Below, in pieces: positions 25,388-62,659 of a DNA stretch of 64,000 bases (its first letter is position 1; each line of letters opens with the position of its first letter). Source of the DNA: Nemertoderma westbladi (lineage: Eukaryota; Animalia; Xenacoelomorpha); NCBI GenBank assembly GCA_032718475.1, contig JAUCBJ010009136.1, forward strand, positions 186,001-250,000. Reading direction: 5' to 3'. Under the pieces are notes generated by a model that saw nothing but the letters and a program-made list of their open reading frames with translations, did not search any database and was not told the DNA's origin. The position numbers were made by a program, and so were the translations under genes.

Positions 25388-25787
25388 AGAACTGCATTTT
25401 TCTAACATTAATCATTGTTACCATGGTAACAGTGAAGAGTTCTAGAACAAAAAATATATAATATACACTATTCTAGAACAAAAATAAAATAAAAAAAATA
25501 TTGTTCCAGAACATAATATAGCTAGTAAGTTTTTAAATTTAAAATATTTGGTAATAAAAAAAATTTATTTATTTATTTATTAGAAAATTTATCTACCAAA
25601 TTGAATATTTTTTTGAATTTACTAGCTATTTTAAAATAAAAAAAAAAATAGTTACTGTATATGTTCTAGAACATTATATTTTATTTTATTTATGATCTAG
25701 AATATAGTGTATATTACTTTTCTATTGTTCTAGAACTCTACAATGTTGCCATAGTAACAAAGACATAAGTTATAAAAATGCAGTTCT
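25388..25787. repeat. AT-rich imperfect palindrome whose right arm runs into the 41-bp satellite
   Basis: AGAACTGCATTTTT..TGTTACCATGGTAACA..GAGTTCTAGAACAA..TAATATACACTAT is mirrored by ATAGTGTATATTA..TTGTTCTAGAACTC..TGTTGCCATAGTAACA..AAAAATGCAGTTCT. Confidence 0.7.
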
Positions 25788-33778: not shown

Positions 33779-35554
33779 TCATAAAAACCATAAGAGACCT
33801 CCTTTCTTTACTCCCATCTGTTTCGCAATCATTTTTGCGTCGCTAGCGTCCCGCACTAACGTTTCCATGGCAATGAGTTCCTCGGCTACCCGAGTGGCGA
33901 TGGGCGACGCGGGTTTAACGTTCCAGAACGCGGCGCCGACCAGTCGCTTACCGTCGTCCACATAGAGTAGAACGCCGGAACGGATTTCCTCCTCGGGAAC
34001 CCGATCCGAAGTCGCGGAGGATTCGTATACCCGAATCTGGCGATCGGAACCCCGGAAGACGCCGTAGGAGGCGAACCGGGAGGAGCTCCGGCCGACCCCG
34101 TGGAAGGAGGCCACCCACCCCGGGAGGCCGCCGGCCCAGCGGTCCGGGGACGCGAAGGGGGCGCGGTTCGTGTGGCCCAGCATCGCGCGACCCGCGTAGG
34201 ACCCCATCGCCGCGGATACCGTCTCGGATTCCCGCCGTCGTCGACCGTGCGTCGCGTCGACGAACTCCGCGACCGAGCCGGCGACGAACTCGTCGACGCG
34301 ACCCGCGGCCCGGAGGAACTCGTCGGCGACGACGCCGCCGTTGGCGCGGCTGGTCGTGAGTCCGGCGCGCGCGGCGAGCTCGGCGTTGGGCCGGTTGGCG
34401 TCAACCAGGACGACCGCGTCCACGGTCAGCGAGGACCCGTCGTCCATCGCCAGGCAAACTCGTCCGTCGTCATCCTTCGCCACGCCGGACACGTCGACCC
34501 CCGGGACCACCCGGACCCCGAGTCGCCGATCCAACCCCCCCGCTACCGCGTCTCCGAGGTACTTCGGGAAGGTTTCCGCGAGGCAACCCGCCCCCCGGAG
34601 GATCTGGTAAACCCGCAGCTCCCCCGTCGCTCGTCGCCTCCCTTTGTTCCGGATCGCCGCTGCCAACTCGGTTGCCACGATCCCGGATCCGACGATCGCC
34701 AAGGAATCCACGCGATCCGCCAACTCAACGACTCTATGAAACTCCTCGATTGTCCGGAAGGTTTGAACCGATTCTGAGTCCAACTGACTCGGAATCTCCG
34801 GACGAACCCCCGTTGCAATCAGCAGCTTCTTGTATCCCAGAGTTTGGCCGGTCTGCAGCCGAATCGATTTAGCTTCGAGATCTATGGCGTCGACTCGGCA
34901 ATCGGTGAGTAAACCGATCCGTCGCCCCCCGGAGCGGCCCAACTCGGAGGCGTCGACGAACTCGTTCTCCGTCGCGAGGAAGGTCGTCCGGTTAACGAGG
35001 AACCGCGAGAGGGCGTCCTTGTAGGTGAGTTCGGAGTCGCCGCGATGCCCCAACCACAGCTCGTAGGAGAGCGGCGCTCTTTGGTACGGACGGACCGATT
35101 CCTCGGTTACTATGAGGACCGGGGCGTCGGCGCGATGGCGACGTATTTCCCGCGCCGCGCTGTAGCCCGCCACTCCGCCGCCGATTATCACGTAGTCGAC
35201 AAGTTCCGGGAGGTCCGGAACTAGTCCCGAGGAAACCTCTGTCTCCTCCTCGACGGGTTTAGTCGCCGCGGCCGCCGTTGTAAATCCGCAGCGGTATTTG
35301 GTCCACGCAATGCCGGTCGCCACTAAAGCGGCCAAGGCACCGGGGGCGAGCCATCCGGGTTGGTGGTTACGTCCGCCATGTATTAATCGAAGGGGTAACC
35401 ATCGCTTAGTAGTAGACATGAAACGCAAACAGCCACGGTGACTACCGGTACTGATGTTTGCGCGATATTGTATTTGTCGCACAGAACACACCCATTGTTT
35501 ACTGGCCCTTCCCACCATCCATCTCGCCCTTGTCGATTGACTGAGAGATATCAT
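33779..35554 (-). CDS. AIFM1: Apoptosis-inducing factor (AIFM1)-like mitochondrial FAD/NAD(H) oxidoreductase, intronless and divergent, nested antisense in a myosin intron
   Basis: 591-aa ORF. Arg/Ser-rich presequence, hydrophobic anchor (GALAALVATGIAW), FAD motif IIGGGVAG, PYQRAPLSYELW, LLIATG, TFRTIEEF, NAD motif IVGSGIVATEL, PNAELA, NGGVV, GRRRRE, C-terminal GVLLY...LVGAAFWNV typical of AIF. GC-rich island. Confidence 0.88.
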   Translation of the reverse strand: MISLSQSTRARWMVGRASKQWVCSVRQIQYRANISTGSHRGCLRFMSTTKRWLPLRLIHGGRNHQPGWLAPGALAALVATGIAWTKYRCGFTTAAAATKPVEEETEVSSGLVPDLPELVDYVIIGGGVAGYSAAREIRRHRADAPVLIVTEESVRPYQRAPLSYELWLGHRGDSELTYKDALSRFLVNRTTFLATENEFVDASELGRSGGRRIGLLTDCRVDAIDLEAKSIRLQTGQTLGYKKLLIATGVRPEIPSQLDSESVQTFRTIEEFHRVVELADRVDSLAIVGSGIVATELAAAIRNKGRRRATGELRVYQILRGAGCLAETFPKYLGDAVAGGLDRRLGVRVVPGVDVSGVAKDDDGRVCLAMDDGSSLTVDAVVLVDANRPNAELAARAGLTTSRANGGVVADEFLRAAGRVDEFVAGSVAEFVDATHGRRRRESETVSAAMGSYAGRAMLGHTNRAPFASPDRWAGGLPGWVASFHGVGRSSSRFASYGVFRGSDRQIRVYESSATSDRVPEEEIRSGVLLYVDDGKRLVGAAFWNVKPASPIATRVAEELIAMETLVRDASDAKMIAKQMGVKKGGLLWFL

Positions 35555-36147
35555 TGCCGGTTACCCGATCAGCTACCGGTCTGCGGTCTCTAACACTGCC
35601 CGTAGTTCAGTACTGAGGTAGTTCCGTCACCGCGTCGTGTCTGGCTGTCTGGAATAATTGAATATACTACTGTCAGACTGTAGCGTAGCTTAGGAACATT
35701 ATAGATAGCTGGATAGGCCAAAACTGAAATAAAATGACAACTTGGGCCAAAACTGAAATAAACTGTCAACTTGCCGGTCCGGTATGGTGGCCCATTAGAG
35801 TCACCAAATAATCTGGAGAAAAATCAGTGTAATTTTTTGATTTTACAAATGTATAATAAAATTAACCGGTACCTTGCAGCCTTGCAACATACACTACCGG
35901 TATCCATTTTCATGAAAGCAGGAAATAACGATTTAAATTTCCCGCGGTTCTATCTTTGATTAAGCTCTTAATTTCTCAATCAATGAGGCGTTTTCTGTTC
36001 TTCTAAAATGAATTGAGCAGCGCCGCTGTTTAATCACAGAATTTCAGCCTGGCCTGCTCATCCGTTTCATTCAAAATAAATTAAAGGGAACACAAGTAAG
36101 TTTCTTCACTACCCGGGTGGGGTTTATAATTATTATGTTGTTCTTAG

Positions 36148-38439: not shown

Positions 38440-41400
38440 GCTACACTCTCGAAATAATAATCGCTACACTCTCGAAATAATAATCGCCACACTCGAAATA
38501 ATAATCGCTACACTCTCGAAATAATAATCACTACACTCTCGAAATAATAATCGCTACACTCTCGACATAATAATCGCTATGCTCTTGAAATAATAATCGC
38601 TACGCTCTCGAAATAATAATTGCTATGCTCTCGAAATAATAATCGCTACGCTGTTGAAATAATAATCGCTACGCTCTCGAAATAATAATCGCTACGCTGT
38701 TGAAATAATAATCGCTACACTCTCGAAATAATAATCGCTACGCTTTCGAAATAATAATCGCTACGCTCTCGAAATAATAATCGCTACGCTTTCGAAATAA
38801 TAATCGCTACACTCTCGAAATAATAGTCGCTACGCTCTCGAAATAATAATCGCTATGCTCTCGAAATAATAATCACTACACTCTCGAAATAATAATCGCT
38901 ACGCTCTCGAAATAATAATCAATACGCTCTCGAAATAATAATCGCTACACTCTCGACATAATAATCGCTATGCTCTTGAAATAATAATCGCTACGCTCTC
39001 GAAATAATAATTGCTATGCTCTCGAAATAATAATCGCTACGCTGTTGAAATAATAATCGCTACGCTCTCGAAATAATAATCACTACGCTCTCGAAATAAT
39101 AATCGCTACGCTCTCGAAATAATAATCGCTACGCTCTCGAAATAATAATCACTACGCTCTCGAAATAATAATCGCTACGCTCTCGAAATAATAATGCTAC
39201 GCTCTTGAATTAATAATGCTACGCTCTCGAAATAATAATGCTACACTCTCGAAATAATAATCACTATGCTCTCGAAATAATAATCGCTACGCTCTCGAAA
39301 TAATAATCGCTATGCTCTTGAATTAATAATGCTACGCTCTCGAAATAATAATGCTACACTCTTGAAATAATAATCGCTATGCTCTCGAAATAATAATGCT
39401 ACACTCTCGAAATAATAATCGCTACGCTCTCAAAATAATAATCGCTGCGCTCTCAAAATAATAATCGCTACGCTCTCAAAATAATAATCGCTACGCTCTC
39501 GAAATAATAATGCTATGCTCTCGAAATAATAATTGCTACGCTCTCGAAATAATAATCGCTACACTCTCGAAATAATAATCACTACGCTCTCGAAATAATA
39601 ATCGCTACACTCTCGAAATAATAATCGCTATGCTCTCGAAATAATAATCGCTACGCTCTCGAAATAATAATCGCTACGCTCTCGAAATAATAATGCTACA
39701 CTCTCGAAATAATAATGCTACACTCTCGAAATAATAATTGCTACGCTCTCGAAATAATAATGCTACACTCTCAAAATAATAATCGCTACGCTCTCGAAAT
39801 AATAATCGCTACGCTCTCAAAATAATAATCGCTACGCTCTCGAAATAATAATCGCTACGCTCTCAAAATAATAATCGCTACGCTCTCGAAATAATAATTG
39901 CTACGCTCTCGAAATAATAATGCTACACTCTCGAAATAATAATCGCTACGCTCTCGAAATAATAATGCTACACTCTCAAAATAATAATCGCTACGCTCTC
40001 GAAATAATAATTGCTACACTCTCGAAATAATAATCACTACGCTCTCGAAATAATAATCACTACGCTCTCGAAATAATAATGCTATGCTCTCGAAATAATA
40101 ATCGCTATGCTCTCGAAATAATAATCGCTACGCTCTCGAAATAATAATTGCTACGCTCTCGAAATAATAATTGCTATGCTCTCGAAATAATAATCACTAC
40201 ACTCTCGAAATAATAATCACTACACTCTCAAAATAATAATCGCTATGCTCTCGAAATAATAATCGCTACGCTCTCGAAATAATAATGCTACACTCTCGAA
40301 ATAATAATCGCTACGCTCTCGAAATAATAATGCTACACTCTCAAAATAATAATCGCTACGCTCTCGAAATAATAATCGCTACACTCTCGAAATAATAATC
40401 ACTACGCTCTCGACATAATAATCACTACGCTCTCGAAATAATAATTGCTACGCTCTCGAAATAATAATCGCTACACTCTCGAAATAATAATCACTACGCT
40501 CTCGAAATAATAATCACTATGCTCTCGAAATAATAATCACTACGCTCTCGAAATAATAATGCTACACTCTCGAAATAATAATCGCTACGCTTTCGAAATA
40601 ATAATCGCTACACTCTAGAAATAATAATCACTACACTCTCGACATAATAATCGCTATGCTCTTGAAATAATAATCGCTACGCTCTCGAAATAATAATTGC
40701 TATGCTCTCAAAATAATAATCACTACGCTCTCGAAATAATAATCACTACGCTGTTGAAATAATAATCGCTCGGCTCTCGAAATAATAATCGCTACGCTCT
40801 CGAAATAATAATCGCTACGCTTTCGAAATAATAATCGCTACACTCTCGAAATAATAATCGCTACACTCTCGACATAATAATCGCTACGCTGTTGAAATAA
40901 TAATCGCTCGGCTCTCGAAATAATAATCGCTACGCTCTCGAAATAATAATCGCTACGCTCTCGAAATAATAATCACTACGCTCTCGAAATAATAATCACT
41001 ACGCTGTTGAAATAATAATCGCTCAGCTCTCGAAATAATAATCGCTACGCTCTCGAAATAATCGCTACGCTTTCGAAATAATAATGCTATGCTCTCGAAA
41101 TAATAATCGCTACGCTCTCGAAATAATAATCGCTATGCTCTCGAAATAATAATCACTACACTCTCGAAATAATAATCACTACGCTGTTGAAATAATAATC
41201 GCTCGGCTCTCGAAATAATAATCGCTACACTCTCGACATAATAATCGCTATGCTCTTGAAATAATAATCGCTATGCTCTCGAAATAATAATCGCTACGCT
41301 CTCGAAATAATAATCGCTATGCTCTCGAAATAATAATCACTACACTCTCGAAATAATAATCGCTACGCTCTCGAAATAATAATTGCTATGCTCTCGAAAT

Positions 41401-43522
41401 AATAATCGCTACACTCTCGAAATAATAATCGCTACGCTCTTGAAATAATAATCACTACACTCTCGAAATAATAATCGCTATGCTCTCGAAATAATAATTG
41501 CTATGCTCTCGAAATAATAATCGCTACACTCTCGAAATAATAATCGCTACGCTCTCGAAATAATAATTGCTATGCTCTCGAAATAATAATCGCTACACTC
41601 TCGAAATAATAATCGCTACGCTCTCGAAATAATAATCGCTACGCTGTTGAAATAATAATCGCTACACTCTCGAAATAATAATCGCTACGCTCTCGAAATA
41701 ATAATCGCTACGCTGTTGAAATAATAATCACTACACTCTCGAAATAATAATCGCTACGCTCTCGAAATAATAATTGCTATGCTCTCGAAATAATAATCGC
41801 TATGCTCTCGGAATGCTACGCTCTCGAAATAATAATCGCTACGCTCTCGAAATAATAATCGCTACACTGTTGAAATAATAATCGCTACACTCTCGAAATA
41901 ATAATCACTACGCTGTTGAAATAATAATCGCTACACTCTCGAAATAATAATCACTATGCTGTTGAAATAATAATCGCTACACTCTCGAAATAATAATCGC
42001 TATGCTCTCGAAATAATAATCGCTACGCTGTTGAAATAATAATCGCTACACTCTCGAAATAATAATCACTACACTCTCGAAATAATAATCGCTACGCTCT
42101 CGAAATAATAATTGCTATGCTCTCGAAATAATAATCGCTACGCTCTCGAAATAATAATCGCTACGCTCTCGAAATAATAATCGCTATGCTCTCGAAATAA
42201 TAATCACTACACTCTCGAAATAATAATCGCTACGCTCTCGAAATAATAATTGCTATGCTCTCGAAATAATAATCGCTACACTCTCAAAATAATAATCGCT
42301 ACGCTCTCGAAATAATAATTGCTATGCTCTCGAAATAATAATCGCTACACTCTCGAAATAATAATCGCTACGCTCTCAAAATAATAATCGCTACGCTGTT
42401 GAAATAATAATCGCTACACTCTCGAAATAATAATCGCTACGCTCTCGAAATAATAATCGCTACGCTCTCGAAATAATAATCACTACGCTGTTGAAATAAT
42501 AATCGCTCGGCTCTCGAAATAATAATCGCTACGCTCTCGAAATAATAATCGCTACGCTTTCGAAATAATAATCGCTACACTCTCGAAATAATAATCGCTA
42601 CACTCTCGAAATAATAATCGCTATGCTCTCGAAATAATAATCACTACACTCTCGAAATAATAATCGCTACGCTCTCGAAATAATAATCAATACGCTCTCG
42701 AAATAATAATCGCTACGCTCTCGAAATAATAATCGCTACGCTCTCGAAATAATAATCGCTACACTCTCGAAATAATAATCGCTACACTCTCGAAATAATA
42801 ATTGCTACACTCTCGAAATAATAATCGCTACGCTCTCGAAATAATAATCGCTACACTCTCGAAATAATAATCGCTACACTCTCGACATAATTATCGCTAT
42901 GCTCTTGAAATAATAATCGCTACGCTCTCGAAATAATAATTGCTATGCTCTCGAAATAATAATCGCTACGCTGTTGAAATAATAATCGCTACGCTCTCGA
43001 AATAATAATCACTACGCTCTCGAAATAATAATCGCTACGCTCTCGAAATAATAATCGCTACACTCTCGAAATAATAATCGCTACACTCTCGAAATAATAA
43101 TCGCTACGCTCTCGAAATAATAATCGCTACACTCTCGAAATAATAATCGCTACACTCTCGACATAATTATCGCTATGCTCTTGAAATAATAATCGCTACG
43201 CTCTCGAAATAATAATCGCTACGCTCTCGAAATAATAATCGCTACGCTCTCGAAATAATAATTGCTACACTCTCGAAATAATAATCGCTACACTCTCGAA
43301 ATAATAATCGCTACACTCTCGAAATAATAATCGCTACGCTCTCGAAATAATAATCGCTACACTCTCGAAATAATAATCGCTACACTCTCGACATAATTAT
43401 CGCTATGCTCTTGAAATAATAATCGCTACGCTCTCGAAATAATAATTGCTATGCTCTCGAAATAATAATCGCTACGCTGTTGAAATAATAATCGCTACGC
43501 TCTCGAAATAATAATCACTACG
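38440..43522. repeat. Tandem satellite, 23-bp unit GCTACGCTCTCGAAATAATAATC (left part, interrupted by the BEL element)
   Basis: About 220 copies; resumes in phase after 61598. Confidence 0.98.
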
Positions 43523-43649
43523 TATAGAATTATATTCCCTAAATGCCGTGGATTTTCAAAATTTTTATTTTATTCGGATTAACTTTGTAAAGATTGCTTT
43601 GAGTTCTCATTCGTATTGGTTCTATCATTTGTACATCTATCGGTCAAGT

Positions 43650-43736
43650 GGTTCAGTAGCTCAGTCGGTAGAGCGTTGGAAACTATATGTGTAGTAGGTA
43701 TCGAGTTCGAATCCTAGTAAGTGCGAATTATTTTTT
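43650..43736 (+). promoter_or_regulatory. tRNA-like Pol III unit in the LTR (A box, B box, T6 terminator); second copy at 59839-59925
   Basis: TAGCTCAGTCGGTAGAGC (A box/D-arm), GAGTTCGAATCC (B box), then TTTTTT. Acceptor and T stems do not pair well. Confidence 0.7.
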
Positions 43737-43793
43737 GTACAGAATTTCAACTCGTTTAAATTAACCGCTACAAATTAATTGCATTTGTCTGTA

Positions 43794-43939
43794 CCAATGA
43801 GATTGTAGTTATTTTATTGTAACCAATGTCGTGCAAGTTATATATTAGCTGGACCAATAGCTATCTTTAAAACCTTGTTAGAACCCATAGAACAATCGAG
43901 AATTTTCTCGATTGATTGCGGCACAAATTTGCTATAAAA
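43794..43939 (+). promoter_or_regulatory. LTR Pol II promoter: three CCAAT boxes and a TATA box
   Basis: CCAAT at 43794, 43823 and 43854 (~30-bp spacing); palindrome CAATCGAGAA/TTCTCGATTG; TATAAAA at 43933; TTAGTT/TCAGTT initiator-like motifs downstream; AATAAA at 44053. Confidence 0.65.
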
Positions 43940-45132
43940 AGGTGCGATTTGTTCATTAGTTATATATATTCTCTCAGTTATTCAGTTATCTGATATTTGT
44001 TTATTCTGTCATTAGTTTTCAGATTACATTGTATTATAATTATATCTTCTGTAATAAAGTCAGAATATTCTCTCAGCTTTTCTATCTGTTTTACTATGGA
44101 TTCACTACGGTGAACAAACTTAGGGACAGGATGGCCGGCTAGAGATCGGGCCGCAGCAATGAACGGGAACATCACGGGAATGTAGACGAGAGACAACCCG
44201 CAATACCATTTAGAGTTATTCGCCCATCGCCTGAAAGGTTAGACAGCGTTCGACAGTGTCCATTGCATTAGAACTTGTAGGCTAGGGGGGTTGCTGTGTT
44301 TTCACCTGAATTGGGATTGTACCGTTCAGGCGGTAGGGCAGTTTACGTACTAGGCGCAAATAAATTGAGGCTATCAGGGATATACTAACATCTACCGTGT
44401 CCCCGCCAACGCCCTAATAGGAAGTTACCCGGACTACCTGGGTGACTAAAATTCTAGATAGGAGCCAGGATAGCTATTAGTACCCGTACGCCTACAGTAG
44501 TAAACTAACACATCTCTTCTTAGTATCAGGGACCTGGTACCTAAAATTGCCGAATTCTGGGCGTAGTATTAACCTTATGCCTGAATTTGAGTCCTGGAAA
44601 TACGCAAGAGGGGAAGGAACCTTATCATTTGTGAGTATTGGACCTACAAGTTACAAAATTAGAATATTCGTAAAATGCACACCGTACCCAGTAATTATAT
44701 ATGTGAAGGAGCAAAACTGTTTTGACCGTTCAGAATTAACACACGCGCGTTAGAAATTATTTACACCTCGAAATATATAAAATTAACTTTGTCCGTACTG
44801 TGCTTTGCCCGCTAGTTAGACATCTCCAAATCTCTGCCTGTACCTAGCTAGCGTCTCTTCGCCCAACCATATAAATCACACCGCGGCAAAGTATACGAGC
44901 CCCTTAGTCCGTCAGTGAGTCAGCCTGACTTTAGGATTCGCTGCGCGGGATTTGTTTTATCGAAGTTTGTCTGCTCGTAGACTGTTTTCTGCCTCACCGG
45001 TTATAAGAGATCGATACTGCAATATATTCGCTTACTTAGAGTTTACTGTTTTGGTGAGAAGGTCGGATTTATGATTTGATTTACAAACTTTACAGTAGGA
45101 TATTGCAGGTATTGTTACCGTCTCTTCCAATA

Positions 45133-45143
45133 GTAGGAATGTG
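45133..45143 (+). other. Primer-binding-site position, non-canonical (GTAGGAATGTG)
   Basis: Immediately follows the 5' LTR, lacks TGG, and is the exact reverse complement of 60564-60574 in the intact LTR. Confidence 0.55.
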
Positions 45144-46169
45144 TTTTACTGAACTACGGTTCGGTAGGACTAAAGTTTTTTGAAAATTTTGTATTTTGAG
45201 GTAAAAATTTGTATTTGATTAGCTAAGTGCTAATTTTTTGAAATAAAATTTGATTTGAACCGCGTGTAAAATATTTTTGGAATTGAATACCGGTGTTTAA
45301 AAAAGGGTTTAAATACCATATTGTACCGGTACAAAATTTTCGTAAAGTAAAACCTAACTCTTTTGTTTTTCAGGATTCAGAACTCATTTCTAGACTGTAA
45401 CGGGAGCAAGACCGTGTTTAGCAAGTTTGGGAGATAGATAACTCAACAACTTTGGTTGGGAAAATCGCGTTTCGTCCGCAACGTTAAAAACGGAAAGGTT
45501 CACGTTCGGTTTGTATCTGGGAATCTGTTTTTCTGGAGAATCATTGGAGTGGGTGAGTTTGAAAAGTTGCATAAATAAGTTAGGCATTACCGTATTAGTT
45601 AAAATTATTGTGGGTTCCACTGTCTCAAGTATTTATGCATTCCGTATGATTTCTTTGTTCATTGCTGAATTAGTCCGTATTATTGTATTTAATTTATCTT
45701 TTGATAACGCATATCGTTATCCGATTTATTTGTTATAAAATTGGCCGCTAGGCTAATTTTATTATATACTTATTCCGTGACATTTATTTGCTGTAAAATT
45801 GGCCGTTTAGGCTAATTTTATCCATCTGCTATAAAATCGGCCGGTAGGCTAATTTTATAAGACTGTAATTAGTACCGTTTTGTACAAATACGGTAAACTC
45901 GATACTTTGACACTCACTTTACTTGACTTACAACTACCGAAATGAGTGACAAACAAGACTATACGAAAAATACACAAACCGACTATGACTCATGTGACGG
46001 AGATAAGTCAGCAGCGGAAGAACAACAGGGGAAGACTCGCGAGCCTACCGAACCTACACCGTGTGCGTCACCAGTACATCCAACGGGAGTACCGGATGCC
46101 GTAGTACGAGGTGACGGCAGGACCGAGGACTTTCTAAGTGTTCCGCAACCTTGATATAGGGAAACGGAC

Positions 46170-49100
46170 ATGGTAAGTTCAGCAGGAAGCCAGGAAAGTG
46201 TGGTTAGAAGCGTCGGAGGTTACATGGCGCATATAACCAGGAGTATTGGAGAAGGTCATCGCATATTAGACGGGTTGACCGCTCCGATGTCTCGATTCGA
46301 GTTCTACACCCTCCAGGTTAGGGTACAGAGTAAAGTATATAAGTCCGTAGATAATCTAGTTGGCCTACAAGATCTAGCTAGACAGAGACAGGACATGGAT
46401 ACTCAACTTAGAATCCTCGAGAAACTAATGATCGCTAGAGAGAAACTGATCCAGTTTAAGTCGACGATTAGACAGATACAACAGGAACAAGCGGACCAGT
46501 TGTTAGGTGAGTCAGTTTCGGACGAATTATTACAGCCCGAGGAAGAACAGGAATTGTACCGATTGGATGGACAATTGAAACATTTGACGGACCACTTACG
46601 TATGTGCGGCGAAGACGTCAGCGATTCGGAAACCGTGCCGGAATATACGAGGGAAACTTCACCCGTACGAATCGAATCGGCACCGGGAATACTGGACCAA
46701 TCGTTAGTGAGTATTCGCAGCGAAATTGGCGAGATAAGTATAGTGACGTCAGAAATTTCCAGACAGCAACAACAGCACGACAGACAACGACGAGAAGCGG
46801 AGGAACAAGCACAACTGTTGACGGCACAAGCAGCGATGCAAGAAGAGAAACTACGCGTTGCGAATGTTGCAAGAATCTCTCATCTGCAAGAACAAGCCGA
46901 GTTGGAAGCAGCCGAGATGGAAAGGTTGGAGCTAGAAATAGCACAGCGAACAGCGACAGCTGAGTTAGCGCAACAAGCGGCAGCAGCTGAGTTAGAACGA
47001 CAAGCAGCAGCAGCGGAGTCGGAGCGACGAGCAGCAGCAGCGGAGTCGGAGCGACGAGCAGCAACAGCGGAACTAGAGCGACGAGCAGCGGAGTTGGAAG
47101 AACACAAGCGAGTTTCGGAAGCAAGAGCTGAAATGAAAAAACGGCAAATAAAGGCTCAATCAGCGATAAGACAAGCGGAGCTCGAGGCGCAACAACAACA
47201 GACGGAACAACGCGAGAAGGAAGTTAAACTTCATTTCGAACTCGGAAAGAAGGCGAGAGAATTAGCCAATGCGAAGGAAGATCTGGATCTACAAGCCCGC
47301 GATCGATCGATGAGATCTCGAGATGGACACGATCTAGACCAGTTAGAGGTAAGGCACCGCCAAATCCAGGAACGAATGAAGGAAGGTTCGGTAGGGGCAC
47401 CTGGACGAGAAAGACAATTAGTTAAGGACTTATGTCAAAGATTCCCTCAGGTAACTCCTATGTTTGCACCTGTTACGACTAAAGAACCTGTTTCGATTGC
47501 TGGTAGCAGTGATATCTCTCCTATCCATGGTGTGACGGAACACAGGTTTGTTATTCCGGACAAGTTTATACCTTCAAGAGCAACGTCGTCGCCTATTCCG
47601 AAAGTCAAGGTAAGTAACCCGCCGATTACAGATCGTAGTAGTTTGTTGACTGGACCTGCACTACTGACGACTAAACAGGTGAGTCCACCGTCGACCCCTA
47701 AACCTGTTACACACTACGCTTACCCAATGACGTTTCGACCAACAAGGCCTTTGGATTCAAAAGCGGTCATTCGCCCACCGATTCAGTTTACATCGCAATC
47801 TACGACTTCGAGGAAGACTTGTGAGCCTACCGAACAACGGAGAACAGTGGAGACGCGACCGTTCAACCAGTGTACATCGCAATCTACGACTTCGAGGAAG
47901 ACTTGTGAGCCTACCGAACAACGGAGACTAGTGGATACGCGACCGTTCAACCAGTGTACATCGCAATCTACGACTTCGAGGAAGACTTGTGAGCCTACCG
48001 AACAACGGAGAATAGTGGACGATGTTCCGAAACGGAACGTTAGAATTCGTACGACGCAACGAACGCGAGCACGTCGACCACCATATCCAGATGATAGTAG
48101 TACTTCGAGCGAATCGGATTACCCGAAACGCGAGGTATTTAGAACAGGGGCGGCCGATGAATATAAACGCGAGCGTTCAGACAACTCCTTTGCAGACAAT
48201 CCTCCACAGAATACACCAACACAGAAGGCGTTACAACCAACGGACGCAATTAGTACACAACAGTTCGCCGACATCATGCGACCAGTTGTTAACAAGTTGG
48301 CTCAGATCGAGGAACGTCTGGAGGAAGGTTACACCGACAGTTCGAGAAATTCCGAATTCGAACACAATAGACACCCGAAGGAACCACAAAGACCGGTACC
48401 TTCAAAACACACATCGTATCAGGGAAAGGCGCCAAGAAGGGAGAATATCAACCAGGTTACCAACCAAGGACGCGAAACTCTGAACGTTGCCGAGGAGATA
48501 GCGAAATTCGCAGCCAGACAAGGATTGCCGGTACAACAACCACCGAAGTTTTCCGGTAGCTCAAAACACTGGCATACTTTCGTAGACTATATCGAATCCC
48601 AGATCGCCGTGTGCGCCTTTACATCACGGGAGAAGTTTAATTACCTGCTTCAAACGTTGTCAGGAGAACCTAAACGTTTGGCGGAGACTTTCGTCGGTGT
48701 ACCGGACGCTTTCGAACTAGCGTACGATCGTTTAACTTCGATATACGGAGGTACAGTTAGTATGGCCAGGTCAGTAATAGAGGAACTCTGTAAGGGAGGG
48801 GCTATCACTAAACCCGTCGACTTACTAAAACTAGCTGACGAGATCAAGAACGCTATCACTACCTTAAGATCAATTGGACAACTTGATTACGGGAATACCC
48901 CTACAGTCCTATTAAAGATCATAGGACGACTCCACCATCGACTTCGTCGGGAGTGGAGGAAGGTCGAATACCAGCGAGAAGAGCGGGGAGGATTCTTAAA
49001 ATTAGAAGATGTGTACCTTTTAATATCCAGGGAGGCGGTAGTAGAAACTCGATCTAACTACACCGACCAGCACATCGTGGCAGAAGGGATCACATTGCCA

Positions 49101-52100
49101 TCCTCCAACCGACAAAAACCCCAGACAACATCCACTAAGACGGCCACTTACACCACACCGACGGAATCACGACAATTCTCGGACGGAGGTAGGGTATCTG
49201 CGCCCATTGGGACAAAACAAACGAGACAGCAACTTGGTACCGACTTCAGTGGCTGCCAATACTGCGAGCATCTAGGTAAGCGGTATATCGGTCACAAGTT
49301 ACGAGGTTGTCGACAATTTCGCGAGTTGAACTCGGAAGAGCGACGGCTGCAAATACGGCCACTGGACTCTTGTTGGCGGTGTACGCGACACGGACACGTC
49401 CGTAAAGATTGCCCAAATACCGACACTTGTCCATCCTGTGGACGCAACCACGACGGTCTGCTCCACACAGACAGCCACACGCCGACGAAACGCTTCGCCA
49501 GGGAACACCCGGAAGCAGCAGCGAGATGTGATGCGGCTTACCGAAAACGAGAATCGAAAACGACTCCAACCTTCGTGACCCATATTGAGGATTGCTTCTC
49601 AGAACAATCCGGATCGTCGGACGAAGAATCAGAAGACGACGAATATTCCAATGGAGACGAACAACCGTCGATCGCGCTTCTGACCACTGACCAACTGAAG
49701 GGATTCAGTGTAATCCCGATTAAGATCACTGGCACAAAGGGGAGTAAGAGGATCTACGCGATTCTAGATTCAGCCTCATCTCATAGCTACGTGGATGAAA
49801 AGATAGCTGACGTAGTGACGGATCTTAAACAAGGTAAGCATGTCAGTTATACAGTAAGTAGTATGCACGGACAGCGTGCAATACCAGTAACACGAGTTAA
49901 GTTGGACTTAGACTCTCTTCTTCCAAAATCGCAGCACAGCGAGAGGGAGAGGTCTTTGTTGCCCTTTAGAGATCTAACCTTTGCGGCCACGAAGGACTTT
50001 AGTAACCTACTAGGTCCAGTGCCGGAACAATCTCTAGAGGACCGTAAGTATTTCAGACACCTTGGTGTACCCGAATGTCCTGTCAATTATAGATCGGTAG
50101 CCATGCTGATCGGGACGGACCAATTCAACCTACATCAGGTGTGGGAAACTAGACCATCGGCAGTTGTAGCGGGAAACGCATACGCCTGCAGAACGCCGAT
50201 AGGGTGGTATACTCGAGCGCCTATGCGCACACTAGACGTAAGTGACGAGGAAGACGATGTACAGAGTACATGTAGTTTATTAACTACAAATTCAATTCAT
50301 TCCTTTTCACACGACGTGAACCATACTACACTACAGTCGACAAAACATAACAGACGTGTAACTAGTATGATAAGTCACAAGGAGCAGCTAATTCACCAGG
50401 TGAGTTTAGAACTTGGGGAGAAGACGAGTCAGCTAGAGATTCCATCGACGACAGATGATAGGCTTGCGAGTCTACCTACCCCAATAACCTCAACAGTGCC
50501 CGTCGAGATCGATGATGATGCGTTGAGAAATCATCAGTTGGAACAAGCTGTACTAGACAAGGAATTAACGGAGAAGACTATCAGGTGGTTGGAACAAGAT
50601 ACAGCTGAACCTGGTAGCTACGAACCTTGTATGTCAGAACAGGAGAAACAATCTCTGAAGATCATGGAAGATACTATCCGCCAGACGAAAGACGGACATT
50701 ATGAGGTAGGGATGTTATGGCGTAGCCAAAGTCCTAAACTTATAAACAACTATCCACTAGCCTTGAGACGTCTACACTCAATACGGCAACGTCTATTAAA
50801 GGACGAGAAAGCCCATCTGCAGTATAACACTCAGATGGAGACGTATTTGACTAAGGGATACGCTATCCGAATGACTAACCCAGAGATAGTGACTAACCAG
50901 ACATACTACCTGCCACATCACTATGTGAGACATCCCGACAAACCAGATAAAGTACGCGTAGTCAATGATTGTGCGGCTCTATTTGAGGGAATGTCCCTCA
51001 ATAGTGAGTTGATGGATGGACCAAACATGAATAATTATCTTATGGGGGTGATTATGCGCTTCCGTCAGCGACAAGTAGCTTTTACTTGTGACGTTGAAGC
51101 GATGTTTCACCAAGTGAGAGCGTTAGAGCGAGACAGAGACAGTTTGCGGTTCCTCTGGTACCCGGAAGGAGACTTAAGTCTACCACCGGCGACTTACCAA
51201 ATGCAAGTTCGCGTTTTCGGTGCCAGAGACAGCCCAAATTGCACGATGTACGCCCTAAAGCAGGCCGCTAGAGATCAGAAACACCTGTATGACCCAGAGA
51301 TAATTAGAATTGTGGAACGTGACTTTTATGTAGATGACGGTTTACAGAGTTGCGACACAGTAGAACGTGCTACAACAGTAGCACATCAATTACGGGACTG
51401 CTTAGCGGGCGGAGGTTTTAACCTCACCAAATTCGCCTCAAACAGTGCCGAATTAGTAGACTCATTCGGGACGACTGAGCGTGGAGGTGGTGACATAGAC
51501 CTAGAGTTCGAACCACTACCGACGACTAAGGTGTTGGGGCTCTTTTGGGACCCAAACACAGACAACTTCCGAGTGAAAGTGAGACTGGACAGTCAAGAGA
51601 ACACACTGACAAAGAGATCATGCTTGTCAAAGTTGAGCCGATTGTTCGATCCGTTAGGATTCATCAGTCCAGTGATACTGCAAGCCCGCATTTATATGCG
51701 CAGTATATGGAAGGATGGACTAACATGGGACGAGCCGATCTCATCAGACCAAGTGGACTTATGGAAGACCTGGGAGGCGGAATTATCTTCGCTAGAGGAT
51801 TATTCCATACCCAGGGTTTACTTTCCATTACAAAGTACATTTCCTGACAACTTGGAACTACACTGTTTTTCTGACGCCAGTGACAACGGTTTTGGTGTGG
51901 CAGCGTACTTGCGCAGACAAGTAGAATCAGACGAGTTCGATGTTTCGCTCATTACTTCTAAGGCTAAGACCATGCCTACTAAGTATATGACGACACCACG
52001 AGCCGAGCTACAAGCCGCAACCCTGTCAACCACCATCGTGAACCTCATACAGACAGAACTACAGTCGAGTTTACAGATATTTTATTGGACTGACGCAACG

Positions 52101-54671
52101 TTGGTTTTATTTTACATAAACAACGACACACTCGAATTCAAGACATTCGTAGCTAACCGTCGCGCAGAAATTCTAGATCGTTCAATAAAAGAGGATTGGC
52201 GACATTGTCCCGGACCACAAAACCCAGCTGATATTGCGTCGCGAGGAATGATGCCTGAGGAATTCTGTAAACCGGAGAACAAAGAATTTTGGCAACACGG
52301 ACCCCAATTCTTGCAGAAATCGACACAAGATTGGCCTCCGTTATACGACAACAAATCTAACACTATCCCAAAGGACGCCGAAATCAAGAAACCAAAAAAG
52401 GGGAAGACAAAGAAAAAGACAACGGCGGCAAAACTCAAGAAGAAACCGAAGGCAAAATGGAAAGATATAACTTCAAAGGTCAAGAGAGGAAGACTTGCGA
52501 GCCTTTCTACACCAGACATATCGCCAGACGGTCAACCAGACACGTTACTAGACGGTCAACCAGACATTCTACCAGACATTAGTAACGCATTGACAAACAG
52601 TAAAGCCGCAGTTTCCCTATTGGAGCGGCCTTCTATTGACAAACAACCAGATACGTTACCAGACGTATCGCCAGACACATTACTAGACAGTCGACTAGAC
52701 ACTAGTAACGTACTGACAAATAGTGAAGCCGCAGTTTCTCTATTGGAGCGGCCTTGTATTGACAAACTACCAATTTTGACACACTTGAGCAACCATAAGC
52801 AAGGTGAAACCTCATGTATTACAGATGTGGGTAGTACCTACGCTAATGTAAATACAGGTGTTACTTTGCGCTCAAGAGACATACCGAACTTGCAACCTAT
52901 GGTGAGACCTGGGATTAATGTCGGCAGGAAAATAAGTTTACCGAAACCTGCTGACCCCATAGAGTTCAAACCACCATTAACGATCGACTTACAAAGTACT
53001 GACGATCAAGGTAAGAAGACGAAGAAGGACAAATTACTTGTAGACCCCGACGGATCAACAGTCAACAAGGGAATACTTACCGGCGGACCCGTGGGCCCTT
53101 CTAGTAATTCAAAACCTTCCAAAATCTCCATTGACTTACCTGATGACGTCACAAATACTCATGTCGACCGTATTGTAAACCTAACAGATTCTTGGACAAA
53201 CGCTTGCCGAAAATTAGCGTGGATTGTACGTTTTGTACAATACGTTAAAGGCAAACGTGACTTTACACGTCGACTTACATTGGCTGAGATTGACAGGTGT
53301 GAGATTAAATTAATTCGCCATTACCAACTGCGATATTTCGCGCGCGAATTCACATCCATAAATCAAGGTCAACCAATCAAGTTGTCACCAATACTGAGTT
53401 GGAGTCCGATTATTTATAATGGCTTAATTTATCATAAATCTCGGCTTCAAAACATTGACTTTAACACAAACTTTAGGTACCCAATAATAATACCGCAACA
53501 CCACGAACTACAACGTGCAATGATACTGGACGCACATCTACATCTGAAACACGCTGGAAGACACCACTGTCTTTCCTACTTACGTACTAGATTTGTATTA
53601 ATTAGACCCAGTAAAGCATTAAGTTCAGTGACACGTACGTGTATTATTTGTAAAAAGGTACATTCTAGAATAGGTACCCAAGAAATGAGTGAACTACCAC
53701 AAGCACGACTTCAAGCATTCAAACCACCTTTTACAGAGACTGGAATTGATTGCTTTGGTCCCATACATACGAAACGTGGACGTATACTAGTAAAACGCTG
53801 GGGACTGATTTTCACATGTATGTCCAGTAGGGCAGTTCATATTGAACGTGTGATGGATCTTTCCACCTACGCGTTTATACTAGCACTGCGGCGATTTATC
53901 GCTAGACGCGGACTAGTAAAATGCTTGTACTCAGACCAAGGGACAAACTTTGTTGGTGCTCGGAATGAGATTGCTAGAGCCTTTAAGAAATTAGATCATG
54001 ATCAAATCTCGAACGAACTACAACCTCACAAGATTGTTTGGAAGTTCAACCCTCCAGATAGTCCTTGGAGAGGCGGAGTCTGGGAGAGATTGATTAGATC
54101 TATAAAGACAGCCATGGCAAAGGTCATTCCAGTAAACCACATATTAACAGACGACCAACTGACAACATTGTTTGTTGAAATCGAGGCAATACTAAATACT
54201 AGACCAATAGTATTAGTACCCGATGACAAACAATCTCAATTTGCTTTAACACCAGCACACCTGCTAATGCAGGCACCGACTACTTTGACGCCGATTTCTA
54301 TTCCAATAGAAAGCGACAGCTACGGTAGAAAAGCGTGGAAAATCACGCAACTACTAGCTAACAAATTCTGGGAAATATGGCAAAACCATTATTTGCCCTC
54401 TATTTCTGCCAGAACAACTTGGTACAATAACACCCGCGCATTAAAGCCGGGAGATCACGTGCTGTTGGCAGAAGTGAATCTAAAAAGACGCTTCTGGATA
54501 ACAGGTGTAATTTTAGCCACACATCCATCTATGGATGGAGTGACAAGAACTGTGACGGTACGGACAATTGACGGTCGTACAGTAGACAGACCGACTCAAC
54601 GTCTCGTACTTCTTGAAGAGACTCGTAACGAGTCTGGAGACTACAAATCTCCACCTAATACTAGTAAATAA
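46170..54671 (+). CDS. BEL/Pao Gag-Pol polyprotein (2833 aa; probably starts at 45942 with an in-frame TGA at 46152)
   Basis: Coiled-coil N-terminus; Gag core PKFSG..W..F; triple Cys/His knuckle (CQYC..H..C, CWRC..GH...C, CPSC..H..LLH); protease AILDSAS; RT YLPHH, RVVNDCAA, DVEAMFHQV, FYVDDG; RNase H FSDAS, PRAEL, WTDAT, NPADIASRG; integrase H-H-CIIC, GIDCFGP, YSDQGTNF, GGVWERLI. Confidence 0.97.
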   Translation: MVSSAGSQESVVRSVGGYMAHITRSIGEGHRILDGLTAPMSRFEFYTLQVRVQSKVYKSVDNLVGLQDLARQRQDMDTQLRILEKLMIAREKLIQFKSTIRQIQQEQADQLLGESVSDELLQPEEEQELYRLDGQLKHLTDHLRMCGEDVSDSETVPEYTRETSPVRIESAPGILDQSLVSIRSEIGEISIVTSEISRQQQQHDRQRREAEEQAQLLTAQAAMQEEKLRVANVARISHLQEQAELEAAEMERLELEIAQRTATAELAQQAAAAELERQAAAAESERRAAAAESERRAATAELERRAAELEEHKRVSEARAEMKKRQIKAQSAIRQAELEAQQQQTEQREKEVKLHFELGKKARELANAKEDLDLQARDRSMRSRDGHDLDQLEVRHRQIQERMKEGSVGAPGRERQLVKDLCQRFPQVTPMFAPVTTKEPVSIAGSSDISPIHGVTEHRFVIPDKFIPSRATSSPIPKVKVSNPPITDRSSLLTGPALLTTKQVSPPSTPKPVTHYAYPMTFRPTRPLDSKAVIRPPIQFTSQSTTSRKTCEPTEQRRTVETRPFNQCTSQSTTSRKTCEPTEQRRLVDTRPFNQCTSQSTTSRKTCEPTEQRRIVDDVPKRNVRIRTTQRTRARRPPYPDDSSTSSESDYPKREVFRTGAADEYKRERSDNSFADNPPQNTPTQKALQPTDAISTQQFADIMRPVVNKLAQIEERLEEGYTDSSRNSEFEHNRHPKEPQRPVPSKHTSYQGKAPRRENINQVTNQGRETLNVAEEIAKFAARQGLPVQQPPKFSGSSKHWHTFVDYIESQIAVCAFTSREKFNYLLQTLSGEPKRLAETFVGVPDAFELAYDRLTSIYGGTVSMARSVIEELCKGGAITKPVDLLKLADEIKNAITTLRSIGQLDYGNTPTVLLKIIGRLHHRLRREWRKVEYQREERGGFLKLEDVYLLISREAVVETRSNYTDQHIVAEGITLPSSNRQKPQTTSTKTATYTTPTESRQFSDGGRVSAPIGTKQTRQQLGTDFSGCQYCEHLGKRYIGHKLRGCRQFRELNSEERRLQIRPLDSCWRCTRHGHVRKDCPNTDTCPSCGRNHDGLLHTDSHTPTKRFAREHPEAAARCDAAYRKRESKTTPTFVTHIEDCFSEQSGSSDEESEDDEYSNGDEQPSIALLTTDQLKGFSVIPIKITGTKGSKRIYAILDSASSHSYVDEKIADVVTDLKQGKHVSYTVSSMHGQRAIPVTRVKLDLDSLLPKSQHSERERSLLPFRDLTFAATKDFSNLLGPVPEQSLEDRKYFRHLGVPECPVNYRSVAMLIGTDQFNLHQVWETRPSAVVAGNAYACRTPIGWYTRAPMRTLDVSDEEDDVQSTCSLLTTNSIHSFSHDVNHTTLQSTKHNRRVTSMISHKEQLIHQVSLELGEKTSQLEIPSTTDDRLASLPTPITSTVPVEIDDDALRNHQLEQAVLDKELTEKTIRWLEQDTAEPGSYEPCMSEQEKQSLKIMEDTIRQTKDGHYEVGMLWRSQSPKLINNYPLALRRLHSIRQRLLKDEKAHLQYNTQMETYLTKGYAIRMTNPEIVTNQTYYLPHHYVRHPDKPDKVRVVNDCAALFEGMSLNSELMDGPNMNNYLMGVIMRFRQRQVAFTCDVEAMFHQVRALERDRDSLRFLWYPEGDLSLPPATYQMQVRVFGARDSPNCTMYALKQAARDQKHLYDPEIIRIVERDFYVDDGLQSCDTVERATTVAHQLRDCLAGGGFNLTKFASNSAELVDSFGTTERGGGDIDLEFEPLPTTKVLGLFWDPNTDNFRVKVRLDSQENTLTKRSCLSKLSRLFDPLGFISPVILQARIYMRSIWKDGLTWDEPISSDQVDLWKTWEAELSSLEDYSIPRVYFPLQSTFPDNLELHCFSDASDNGFGVAAYLRRQVESDEFDVSLITSKAKTMPTKYMTTPRAELQAATLSTTIVNLIQTELQSSLQIFYWTDATLVLFYINNDTLEFKTFVANRRAEILDRSIKEDWRHCPGPQNPADIASRGMMPEEFCKPENKEFWQHGPQFLQKSTQDWPPLYDNKSNTIPKDAEIKKPKKGKTKKKTTAAKLKKKPKAKWKDITSKVKRGRLASLSTPDISPDGQPDTLLDGQPDILPDISNALTNSKAAVSLLERPSIDKQPDTLPDVSPDTLLDSRLDTSNVLTNSEAAVSLLERPCIDKLPILTHLSNHKQGETSCITDVGSTYANVNTGVTLRSRDIPNLQPMVRPGINVGRKISLPKPADPIEFKPPLTIDLQSTDDQGKKTKKDKLLVDPDGSTVNKGILTGGPVGPSSNSKPSKISIDLPDDVTNTHVDRIVNLTDSWTNACRKLAWIVRFVQYVKGKRDFTRRLTLAEIDRCEIKLIRHYQLRYFAREFTSINQGQPIKLSPILSWSPIIYNGLIYHKSRLQNIDFNTNFRYPIIIPQHHELQRAMILDAHLHLKHAGRHHCLSYLRTRFVLIRPSKALSSVTRTCIICKKVHSRIGTQEMSELPQARLQAFKPPFTETGIDCFGPIHTKRGRILVKRWGLIFTCMSSRAVHIERVMDLSTYAFILALRRFIARRGLVKCLYSDQGTNFVGARNEIARAFKKLDHDQISNELQPHKIVWKFNPPDSPWRGGVWERLIRSIKTAMAKVIPVNHILTDDQLTTLFVEIEAILNTRPIVLVPDDKQSQFALTPAHLLMQAPTTLTPISIPIESDSYGRKAWKITQLLANKFWEIWQNHYLPSISARTTWYNNTRALKPGDHVLLAEVNLKRRFWITGVILATHPSMDGVTRTVTVRTIDGRTVDRPTQRLVLLEETRNESGDYKSPPNTSK

Positions 54672-55331
54672 TTAGGAGTTTACAAATAGATTTCCACGTA
54701 CCTGTACACTGTAGTAAGGACAGCGGTAGAATTCCATTGTCTTTATATGTGAACATTGAGGGTAGTACCCTTATGTGTCACATAGGAGCGGGATTTGTAG
54801 GTATAAGAAATGGAATTCTACTTGGAACTCACAATATTGAGACATTTTCGAAATTTTAGACAATCCATTTGGATTTGAAAATTTTTAAAATTTTCTCCAG
54901 TGAATAGATTTCAGGGTACAGTCGGGTGGAACTTAAAATTAGAGAAACAAGAGAGGAAGACTTGCGAGCCTTTCTTAAAAATTTTAATTAAATTTTACAC
55001 GGTCTTGTTTCAATAAGTTACGTCAATAAATAGACTCCCCTATATTTATTACTAATTCTTGACTGCTTATTTTCTGATAATAGTTTGGGATCAAAAAGTG
55101 AGTATTTTAGACTCACAGCCAGTTTAGCCCAAATTCGTTTTTACTTCGGCAAAAATTTTAGATAAGAAGCAGCGTGTCATTAAAGAAACCCTAGATCTTA
55201 GGCTATGGGTAGGAGGTTAGAGCGTTGTCGAAGCCCAAAGGGCAGACGAAACTCTCACGTCTCCTCACAACTAACTACAAACTCTGTTGTATTCCCTCTA
55301 GTAGTAATGATTATGTAACTACACCCTAATT

Positions 55332-56507
55332 ATGGAGAAAGGGATACAAGGAGAGCCGAGATGGGGATATGATATCCAAGAGGAGGCAGCAGCGCCATTC
55401 GAAAGATTTGGAGCCAAGGATTATACTATATTTGGTATAAAAGAATTATCGGAAAGTACAGCGAAACTCGCGAGAACTAAATATGACTCGAACGTATTAA
55501 AGAGAAGGCAAAACGCATTAAACGAAAGAATCGAAAGTTTGCGCCAAACCTTCAACGAACTTTACCCGTACGATGCTTTGTGTGATACGGGAGACATTAG
55601 CGAAGACCCCGATACTGAAATTAGTCGTTTGTATCATACCATGCAATACCTAAAGGCGCACGAACCTATGCCCGCAGTACGCGATGAATTCGATGGAATG
55701 CATCTTTACAGACGAACTCGAGGGGACGATAGAGAAACCAAGGAAGCATTTTCAGTTTATAAACTTTATTATCAATGCGGTTCTTGTATGCGCGAACAAC
55801 GAAATGCGATTCCGATGCGTTTGAATAAGGAAAATCCCGAACCGATATTGGCGAGGTGTTCGAATCATCAACAACTACGCTACCAGGAAGGAGGGTATCC
55901 TTTATCGAATCCATATCATTCATTTGCTATGACCGGACCAAAGGCGGGAGAAACTGTCATTTACCCACCTAAGGTTGTTGAACCCGATGTATTTGAACTT
56001 ACGCTGGACGAGGCGAATCAGTCAACCCGCGAAAAGAAAGAAGCTCTTAGCCTATACAGAGCCTACAAGGCTTTCGAGAAAGGTGAGATGGAAGAATGGG
56101 GTGGAAGACTCGCGAGCCTACCTTGCCATTGGACGTCACACGATCAAACTTCAGCTAAGGAGATGACACCGGAAGTTTTCGAGAGCATAAACTTTGCTCA
56201 AAACGTTATTCAGAGATTACAGATTGCATCCCCGGAGAGGCCAAGAGAAATGCAACCGTATAGTACTTCAACTACGAAACCATTGAGTACGACACTCAAT
56301 TTCCCTATTAGTATACCAGTCCGACAGGATACGACGTACGAAATACCCATCGTGGATCATCCAGAAATCATTTCAAACTTGGAGTTTCTTCCTGCAGTTG
56401 TTTTCAGCGATATGAGTAAGATATATGATTTATGTAGACATATTACTCAAAAGGTCGTGCGTTGTGCACGAGGTTCAAGATTTCAAGATTTTCAAGGAAC
56501 TGGATAG
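55332..56507 (+). CDS. Accessory ORF A of the BEL element (391 aa), unknown function, possible CxxC...CxxH zinc site
   Basis: Open, non-repetitive ORF in the env slot; YQCGSC...ARCSNH; no evident signal peptide or transmembrane segment; overlaps ORF B (+1 frame). Confidence 0.7.
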   Translation: MEKGIQGEPRWGYDIQEEAAAPFERFGAKDYTIFGIKELSESTAKLARTKYDSNVLKRRQNALNERIESLRQTFNELYPYDALCDTGDISEDPDTEISRLYHTMQYLKAHEPMPAVRDEFDGMHLYRRTRGDDRETKEAFSVYKLYYQCGSCMREQRNAIPMRLNKENPEPILARCSNHQQLRYQEGGYPLSNPYHSFAMTGPKAGETVIYPPKVVEPDVFELTLDEANQSTREKKEALSLYRAYKAFEKGEMEEWGGRLASLPCHWTSHDQTSAKEMTPEVFESINFAQNVIQRLQIASPERPREMQPYSTSTTKPLSTTLNFPISIPVRQDTTYEIPIVDHPEIISNLEFLPAVVFSDMSKIYDLCRHITQKVVRCARGSRFQDFQGTG

Positions 56508-59061: not shown

Positions 59062-59711
59062 AAGGGAGGGCAAGGGTGGATGGAAGACTCGTGGGCCTTT
59101 CTTATGATTTGTGATTTATTTGAATTTATATTTATATTTGTGTTTATTCCGAACTTAAGCAATTTGTATTGTTCCGAATTTGTATTTAGAAAGTTTATAT
59201 TTAAAAGGAACTTATATTTGAAAGATTTATGTTTCATATTTGAGATGCAAAGGAGTTTATATTATTCTAAACTTATGCAGTTTATATTTAGTAAAGATTT
59301 ATATTTAGTAAGAATTTATATTTTATATTTGTAATTATTCCGAACTTATGCAATTTATATTATTCCGAACTTATGCAATTTATATTGTTCCGAATATTAT
59401 GTAATTTACATTTTATAGGCAGTATTTACAGTGAAATAGAAATAATTGTTTGAATTTATGTAATATTGAGATGCAATAGATTTATATTGGTGAATTTAAT
59501 TTAGATTTATATTGTACTTACTTAGTAAAGCCTTAAATACGTAAAGTTTGAATTTGTAATTATTTTGTATCGAATCATTACGTAGAAAGGAAGTATTGTT
59601 TGAAATTTAATTGTAAATATGTAAGTACGCCCTAAGTATTCTATAGTTTGATTGATTATTGGTGAAAACCGTATATTTTATGCACGATAATATCCTGTTT
59701 TCATGGAGCGG

Positions 59712-62605: not shown

Positions 62606-62659
62606 TACAAATATAGTCTACTTTTTCATTTAAATAGTAAATAATATGTCAGAAACGTA

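Follow-up and report, generated by a model that had tools for sequence, protein, structure and literature searches.

The window analysed here, a 64-kb stretch of 64,000 nucleotides, contains a Bel/Pao LTR retrotransposon with a length of 18,076 nt (43523-61598) and LTR ends TAT...ATA, all the features of which described below lie on the forward strand. It is inserted into a satellite with a 23-bp unit and flanked by a 5-bp target-site duplication, CTACG (left copy 43518-43522, right copy 61599-61603). Most of the window consists of five satellite arrays (3425-14275, 19017-24327, 25780-33512, 38440-43522 and 61599-64000) with units of 22, 46, 41, 23 and 66 bp, respectively. There is also a partial pol of another LTR retrotransposon (563-2888, with RVT_1 and RT_RNaseH) and, on the minus strand and isolated among the satellite arrays, an intronless gene (33779-35560) coding for a 593-aa pyridine nucleotide-disulphide oxidoreductase, which we take to be AIF-like.

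The 5′ LTR (43523-45132) contains 1610 nt and the 3′ LTR (59712-61598) 1887 nt, the latter carrying TATAAA at 60122 and AATAAA at 60242 and 60825. The 5′ LTR's end was set at 45132 by the divergence of the two LTRs at 45133/61599 and by the CTACG flanks. Over the 1610 aligned bases the LTRs are separated by only four substitutions, which points to a young insertion. The 5′ LTR lacks a 277-nt block with 3-base microhomology at its ends, which in this copy is found in the 3′ LTR only (about 60440-60719; junction in the 5′ LTR near 44250-44253). All the read data used here are contigs from four runs, X1-X4, representing three samples. The block is covered by contigs of X1, X3 and X4, with the summed X1/X3 depth being about that of the rest of the LTR, and the deletion joint of the 5′ LTR is not among the seven joints listed from the run contigs; the family is therefore regarded as normally having the block, with this 5′ LTR being the exception. 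As the contigs drop rare variants, the missing joint speaks neither for nor against an assembly error. The block was rejected as an intron since it has no GT-AG ends. A short polypurine tract ending in GGAGCGG (59703-59711) abuts the 3′ LTR, and similar tracts like GGGGCCGG were found in the related elements described below. The U3 region contains a tRNA-like stretch (59821-59915 and 43632-43726) in which A-box- and B-box-like motifs precede a T run, possibly a captured SINE head or a Pol III unit; it was detected by ARAGORN at a relaxed threshold only, the standard setting giving no tRNA genes in the 64-kb window.

The gag-pol frame (45942-54671) includes DUF1759, zinc knuckles, a protease (LDSAS), a reverse transcriptase (RT; YVDD), an RNase H (FSDAS), an integrase and DUF5641. 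The Pfam matches are Peptidase_A17 (E 2e-42), DUF1759, DUF5641 and Integrase_H2C2, with the order protease-RT-RNase H-integrase. In this copy the frame is interrupted by an in-frame TGA at 46152-46154, which would leave gag-pol either broken or read through. The search of the protein collection returned 2045 proteins at E ≤ 1e-40, the same Pfam set being present in the best 120 of the 2045. The best matches among those listed (40-45%) come from cnidarians, echinoderms, molluscs, a hemichordate and fish, and no close relative was found in this collection, the best match listed being 45%.

Downstream of gag-pol there are two extra ORFs, neither of them env-like by any search run. ORF2 (55311-56507, 398 aa) matches no family and no homologue; it is preceded by a pyrimidine tract and a TAG at about 55285-55301, which may be its splice acceptor. 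ORF3 (56416-59061, 881 aa) contains a candidate DEDD-type 3′–5′ exonuclease domain followed by three zinc knuckles. It has no Pfam match. In the Atlas, the clusters closest to it combine DNA_pol_A_exo1 and zinc knuckles (0.85, 154/256 features), with a recognition value of 2293, under 2300. The D-x-E motif and the second D are invariant in two distant homologues, and the last motif has E instead of D in two of the three sequences. Profile matches in PDB (EXD2, WRN exonuclease and 7c42) are weak (E 0.03-0.6), the fold models (pLDDT 31-34) are too poor for a fold search, and the comparison with E. coli RNase D scored no better than shuffles. Exonuclease function of ORF3 is a weak lead.

The element shares with Belpaoviridae the domain set and order, the single gag-pol frame, the LTRs and the 5-bp target duplication. 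The ICTV description of the family gives lengths of 4.2-10 kb, LTRs of 0.2-1.2 kb and an 18-nt primer-binding site (PBS) for the 3′ end of tRNA-Arg or tRNA-Gly, and calls the replication poorly understood (PMC8742986). The element differs from this in its 18,076 nt, its LTR of 1887 nt, its two extra ORFs, its TAT...ATA ends and the absence of a tRNA PBS. The tRNA PBS was treated as a descriptive trait of a few named species because placement in the family rests on RT phylogeny. The element probably belongs to the Sailor lineage (Sinbad, Sparrow, Surcouf) or to Suzu, the clade name being deduced from the host range.

An intron was identified at 44238-45373, with a GT donor at 44238 (60427 in the 3′ LTR), a branch point, a pyrimidine tract and a CAG acceptor at 45373. 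In a contig of run X4, a stretch of 26 letters assigned by eye to 44210-44235 is joined to the sequence from 45372 on, and the X4 depth is 38-117 at 45167-45348 vs 359-685 from 45377, the other three runs being flat. Because of the junction contig and the depth drop between donor and acceptor, we infer that X4, recorded as "DNA?", is RNA. The family of the element is abundant and transcribed in the host. In the LTR region 60593-61455, 90 of the 143 places that differ in X4 are A>G, and a single 701-nt contig has 95 differences; this pattern resembles ADAR hyper-editing of double-stranded RNA from the LTR.

The PBS (45133-45151) directly follows the 5′ LTR and consists of an 11-nt core (45133-45143) and a weak distal extension (45145-45151). 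No TGG is present at 45129-45165. The core, GTAGGAATGTG, is the exact reverse complement of CACATTCCTAC at 60564-60574 in the 3′ LTR, and each of these 11-mers is unique in the window. The perfect 11-nt complement reported in an earlier note on this DNA was thus reproduced with the LTR boundary fixed by the LTR alignment and the target duplication. That note described the complement as lying in the element's own LTR, which is true of the 3′ LTR and not of the 5′ LTR, where the block holding the segment is missing and the best complement of the core is 5 nt. A further pairing of 5 bp between 45147-45151 and 60553-60557 was found as claimed, and it extends to 7 bp if one G-U is allowed; on its own it is not significant, with 6% of 1796 decoys being as stable. 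As for the U3 tRNA-like stretch, it was rejected as a primer, its pairing with the PBS, judged by eye, covering no more than 5 bases, and a search of 59000-61650 against Rfam (E ≤ 10) gave no matches, leaving a known ribozyme or tRNA-like unit for the primer end unsupported.

For the 11-nt match, the rough chance of which was first put at 5e-4, the Markov expectation is 4.1e-4; when the 1887-nt LTR was shuffled 5000 times with its dinucleotides preserved, two of the shuffles held the 11-mer at offset 0. When offsets of 0-5 are allowed, 10 of 5000 shuffles hold it. None of 361 decoy positions in the element reaches 11 Watson-Crick pairs and four equal the score with G-U permitted, so under these lenient rules the chance of the match is about 1% (4/361). 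Judged on a single copy, the match is unlikely to be accidental, not overwhelmingly so. No variant at 1% or more is seen at 45095-45155 in the four runs, only 10 places at 45041-45460 vary at this level, and the read depth runs on from the LTR into the PBS. Other copies in the host therefore share this PBS, with the family being too uniform for this to indicate selection. The 7-20 letters preceding the last 12 LTR bases vary between copies. At 45121-45140, minority contigs in all four runs carry the LTR end, the first eight PBS letters and seven others in tandem before the normal PBS, possibly as a result of fold-back errors at the cDNA end.

A second predicted helix, overlooked in the earlier note and stronger than the distal extension, lies beside the primer duplex and is formed by the LTR end (45113-45128) and 60581-60595, with an energy of −16.2 kcal/mol which none of 1778 decoy windows attains. 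When both natural stretches are paired, the predicted structure (−38 kcal/mol in total) has a helix of 7 bp, then the 11-bp core and, past a 6/4 loop, 13 more pairs with the LTR end; unlike the downstream flank helix, the upstream 7-bp helix is unremarkable compared to decoys. The change C>A at 60588, a common family variant (about one third of the depth in X1/X3 and all of X4), would add one pair to the unbroken flank helix. Also overlooked was a local hairpin of 210 nt (60553-60762; z −4.83, 0/200 shuffles) which masks the primer segment and in the 3′ arm of which GTAGG (60743-60747) mimics the PBS. The predicted folding favours this hairpin, as the net gain from PBS binding is just −4 to −5 kcal/mol. 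In the context of 60427-60860 this gain is gone, the best predicted structure leaving the PBS unpaired with the segment. We read the modelled change from hairpin to PBS pairing as a switch that would need a chaperone, and this is equally a real objection to self-priming.

An alignment-based scan yielded 80 metagenome loci with 37-44% RT identity to the window element, while a search of viral contigs found no relative. Long direct repeats are present in 31 of the 80, and 13 distinct loci have the LTR end fixed by the LTR pair; dropped from the 31 were L049, fifteen loci with an open LTR end, L036 as a duplicate of L041, and L059 as a coding duplication. The LTR ends of L018, L047, L062, L064 and L072 were shifted by hand by 1-10 nt to finish at ACA/ATA. 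Non-canonical LTR ends occur here as well, TGT...ATA being found in three of the 13 (L021, L062 and L064). No TGG lies within 8 nt of the LTR in any of the 13 and, together with the invariant PBS in the four runs, this leaves the TGG-type PBS once named as refuting evidence without an example. In contrast, 12 of the 13 possess a complement of their own LTR with 10-15 pairs starting 2-4 nt past the LTR, the letters differing from element to element. This covariation in relatives, the lack of TGG at 45129-45165 and the invariant PBS in the four runs support the claim of an element-encoded primer instead of a tRNA. The exception, L072, has a score of 7.5 and a poorly defined LTR end.

In 9 of the 12 self-complementary relatives the complement forms only across a predicted GT-AG junction in the LTR; the remaining three resemble the window element in having a contiguous complement. 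In the nine split cases the unspliced best is 6-9 and the spliced one 11-15, with exon 2 supplying 6-7 nt every time. A splice-assembled primer is therefore a pattern of the relatives, predicted from consensus splice sites, and not of the window element, for which a splice-made primer was tested and rejected (best spliced score 8 vs 11 contiguous). The LTR of L041 and L036 has a second GTAAGT donor upstream of the primer-forming one, and alternative splicing there could give primer-less RNAs.

For each of the 12 relatives, none of 30 decoy positions reaches the score. When the 14 elements were crossed with one another (14 × 14), 12 of the 14 rows had the element's own pair in first place, alone or tied. 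A score of 10 is attained by 11 of 182 foreign pairs, six of which fall within a trio of elements sharing a near-identical PBS; the window element is tied by one of 15 decoys and by one foreign PBS. The sister elements L043 and L064 show a compensated A-U/U-A change. No flank helix was seen in any of the 12. In 10 of the 12 relatives the primer end is followed by a poly(A) hexamer at a distance of 6-135 nt, and in none does one lie upstream; in the window element the hexamer is at +250. This is the geometry needed for the strand jump. The distance from the primer to the LTR end is about 1020 nt in the window element vs 62-245 nt in the relatives. In a quick tree the RT of the window element nests within the relatives (starred values 98 and 95) on a long branch of 1.62. 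The two primer types show no clustering on this tree, values as low being obtained in 161 and 166 of 500 shuffles, so no order of events is claimed.

A blind search of loci with no defined LTR end gave matches in 3 of 40 vs 0 of 40 on the reverse strand and 1 of 40 with another motif. Looser searches (27 and 8 loci) added L073 and L011 (spliced) and L029 and L061 (contiguous). They also matched outside the LTR context in L015, L016, L030, L054, L060, L067 and L080, and for this reason were left uncounted. The conclusion below rests on the phylogenetic covariation and not on the single 11-mer.

It is quite reasonable to suggest that Tf1-like self-priming in Belpaoviridae is the best reading of these sequences and likely correct. 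There is a high probability, in our judgement, that minus-strand DNA is started from the element's own LTR RNA (60564-60574) and not from a host tRNA. The window element would then represent the contiguous form of a lineage-wide trait, with the primer of most relatives being predicted to be assembled via splicing of the LTR intron. That the 11-base match of the window element is due to chance is highly improbable, since the lenient search (about 1%), the number of elements inspected, the long LTR and the lack of the segment in the 5′ LTR are outweighed by the exact match at offset 0 (4e-4), the independent flank helix and the 12 of 13 relatives alike.

Tf1/Tf2 and Tj1 of fission yeasts, which belong to the Tf1/sushi group of Ty3/gypsy chromoviruses, likewise have a PBS complementary to 11 bases of the own LTR, form extra helices beside the primer duplex and need a cut (PMC7175516, PMC4600332), RNase H cutting after base 11 in Tf1 (PMC7175516). 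The window element is not a member of that group, which has a chromovirus RT, but carries Bel/Pao domains and would work alike; the intron-split complement of its relatives is not reported for Tf1 in the passages cited. For Tcn1 and the TAR plant lineages (Houba, Osr-1), self-priming is predicted on the basis of at least 10 complementary bases 0-5 nt after the LTR (PMC6317226), and the window element has such a complement; those elements differ in belonging to the gypsy and copia superfamilies and in being assessed on the 5′ LTR, where this copy lacks the segment. Self-priming has been reported or predicted for Tf1/sushi, Tj1, Tcn1 and TAR copia (PMC6317226, PMC4600332, PMC3601003, PMC5445492). 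A term search of the Bel/Pao surveys PMC3118150, PMC554778, PMC6238403 and PMC8556966 gave no occurrence of PBS or tRNA, and passages of PMC8220671 and PMC9094657 have nothing on priming. In the literature searched, which covered main texts other than subscription journals and Repbase reports, no self-priming or splice-made primer was found for Bel/Pao. Cer elements carry an extra exonuclease domain, and Cer7 from Caenorhabditis elegans (Tas/Cer clade) is said to encode its own tRNA-like primer. A tRNA-like primer of this kind would be unlike an LTR segment, whether plain or spliced, and, if Cer7 does encode one, the novelty of an element-made primer in Bel/Pao is lowered.

In the proposed self-priming, which is based on the predicted structures, the LTR segment in the unspliced RNA of an intact copy would leave the local masking hairpin, probably with the assistance of the nucleocapsid zinc knuckles. 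The freed segment would pair with the PBS, the duplex being braced by the second helix between the bases after the segment and the LTR end. An endonuclease would then free a 3′-OH at 60574 by a cut predicted between 60574 and 60575; by analogy with Tf1, the RNase H of the element's own RT is the likeliest cutter. Strong-stop DNA would run back to the cut and then jump to the 3′ repeat. As the cut is internal, the RNA must end downstream of 60575, which is permitted by AATAAA at 60825, and a cut inside the 5′ repeat copy would be equally workable if the RNA ends at this second hexamer. Since the 5′ LTR of this copy has no block, the primer here would have to come from the 3′ repeat copy or be supplied in trans. 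Origin of the primer from the RNA's own 3′ end, or from a short LTR transcript acting in trans, is possible and would work equally well on paper. The intron takes the PBS, and in intact LTRs also the primer segment, out of the gag-pol mRNA, so the spliced RNA (44237 to 45374) cannot serve as a template and would have the role of mRNA only.

The earlier remark still stands that, with some 400 nt between the TATA box (TATAAA 60122) and the segment, cutting or trimming is required, and exon 1 in the X4 contig extends upstream of the segment, indicating at least one transcript that starts earlier; a second start at the segment itself may exist beside it. AATAAA at 60242 precedes the segment and the X4/X1 depth ratio falls after about 60270, a weak signal; many transcripts may therefore stop short of the primer segment. 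A variant of self-priming sharing the claim of an element-made primer, to which we give a minor but real chance, is that either the genomic RNA, through its 3′ end, or a short, separate transcript of the LTR supplies the primer once a 3′–5′ exonuclease, possibly ORF3, has trimmed it back to 60574. The internal position of the segment would suit it, a primer in trans or from the 3′ end would account for the relatives keeping the LTR intron, and ORF3 offers the DNA_pol_A_exo1 clusters, the invariant D-x-E and second D and the weak matches to EXD2, WRN and 7c42. However, the exonuclease call is below every threshold (Pfam, fold, RNase D and Atlas), no counterparts of ORF2 or ORF3 were found in the 80 related loci beyond two weak zinc-knuckle matches, so the relatives manage without ORF3, and a trimming enzyme would be halted short of 60574 by the flank helix and the hairpin.

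Priming by a host tRNA fragment or small RNA, with the LTR pairing only regulating or occluding the PBS as a packaging, splicing or translation switch, appears improbable. The family is described as primed by tRNA-Arg or tRNA-Gly (PMC8742986), half-tRNA priming is known in copia lineages (PMC6317226), and the LTR-PBS pairing is energetically marginal. Nevertheless, the PBS letters vary among the 13 relatives and track their own LTRs rather than a fixed host RNA, and in every case the pairing ends flush within 0-4 nt of the end of the LTR, the arrangement of a primer.

A broader scenario building on element-made priming seems doubtful to us as a whole. It supposes that a wide lineage of Belpaoviridae from marine animals would have abandoned tRNA priming, with the host spliceosome assembling the primer across the LTR intron and the window element being a derived contiguous form. 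The hairpin with the PBS mimic would be an off-switch, splicing would part mRNA from template, and an acquired RNase D-like ORF3 with zinc knuckles would mature the primer end.

Element-made priming comes with exact testable coordinates for the primer end, the cut site and the RNA end and, as the family is abundant and transcribed in the host, native intermediates should be recoverable. Bel/Pao elements are assumed to be tRNA-primed (PMC8742986); if self-priming is true, one of the three animal LTR superfamilies has a large self-priming branch, and a further origin of self-priming stands beside the gypsy and copia cases. LTR finders requiring a tRNA site or TG...CA ends would overlook such elements. 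The primer in most members examined would depend on splicing, coupling host RNA processing to the start of reverse transcription.
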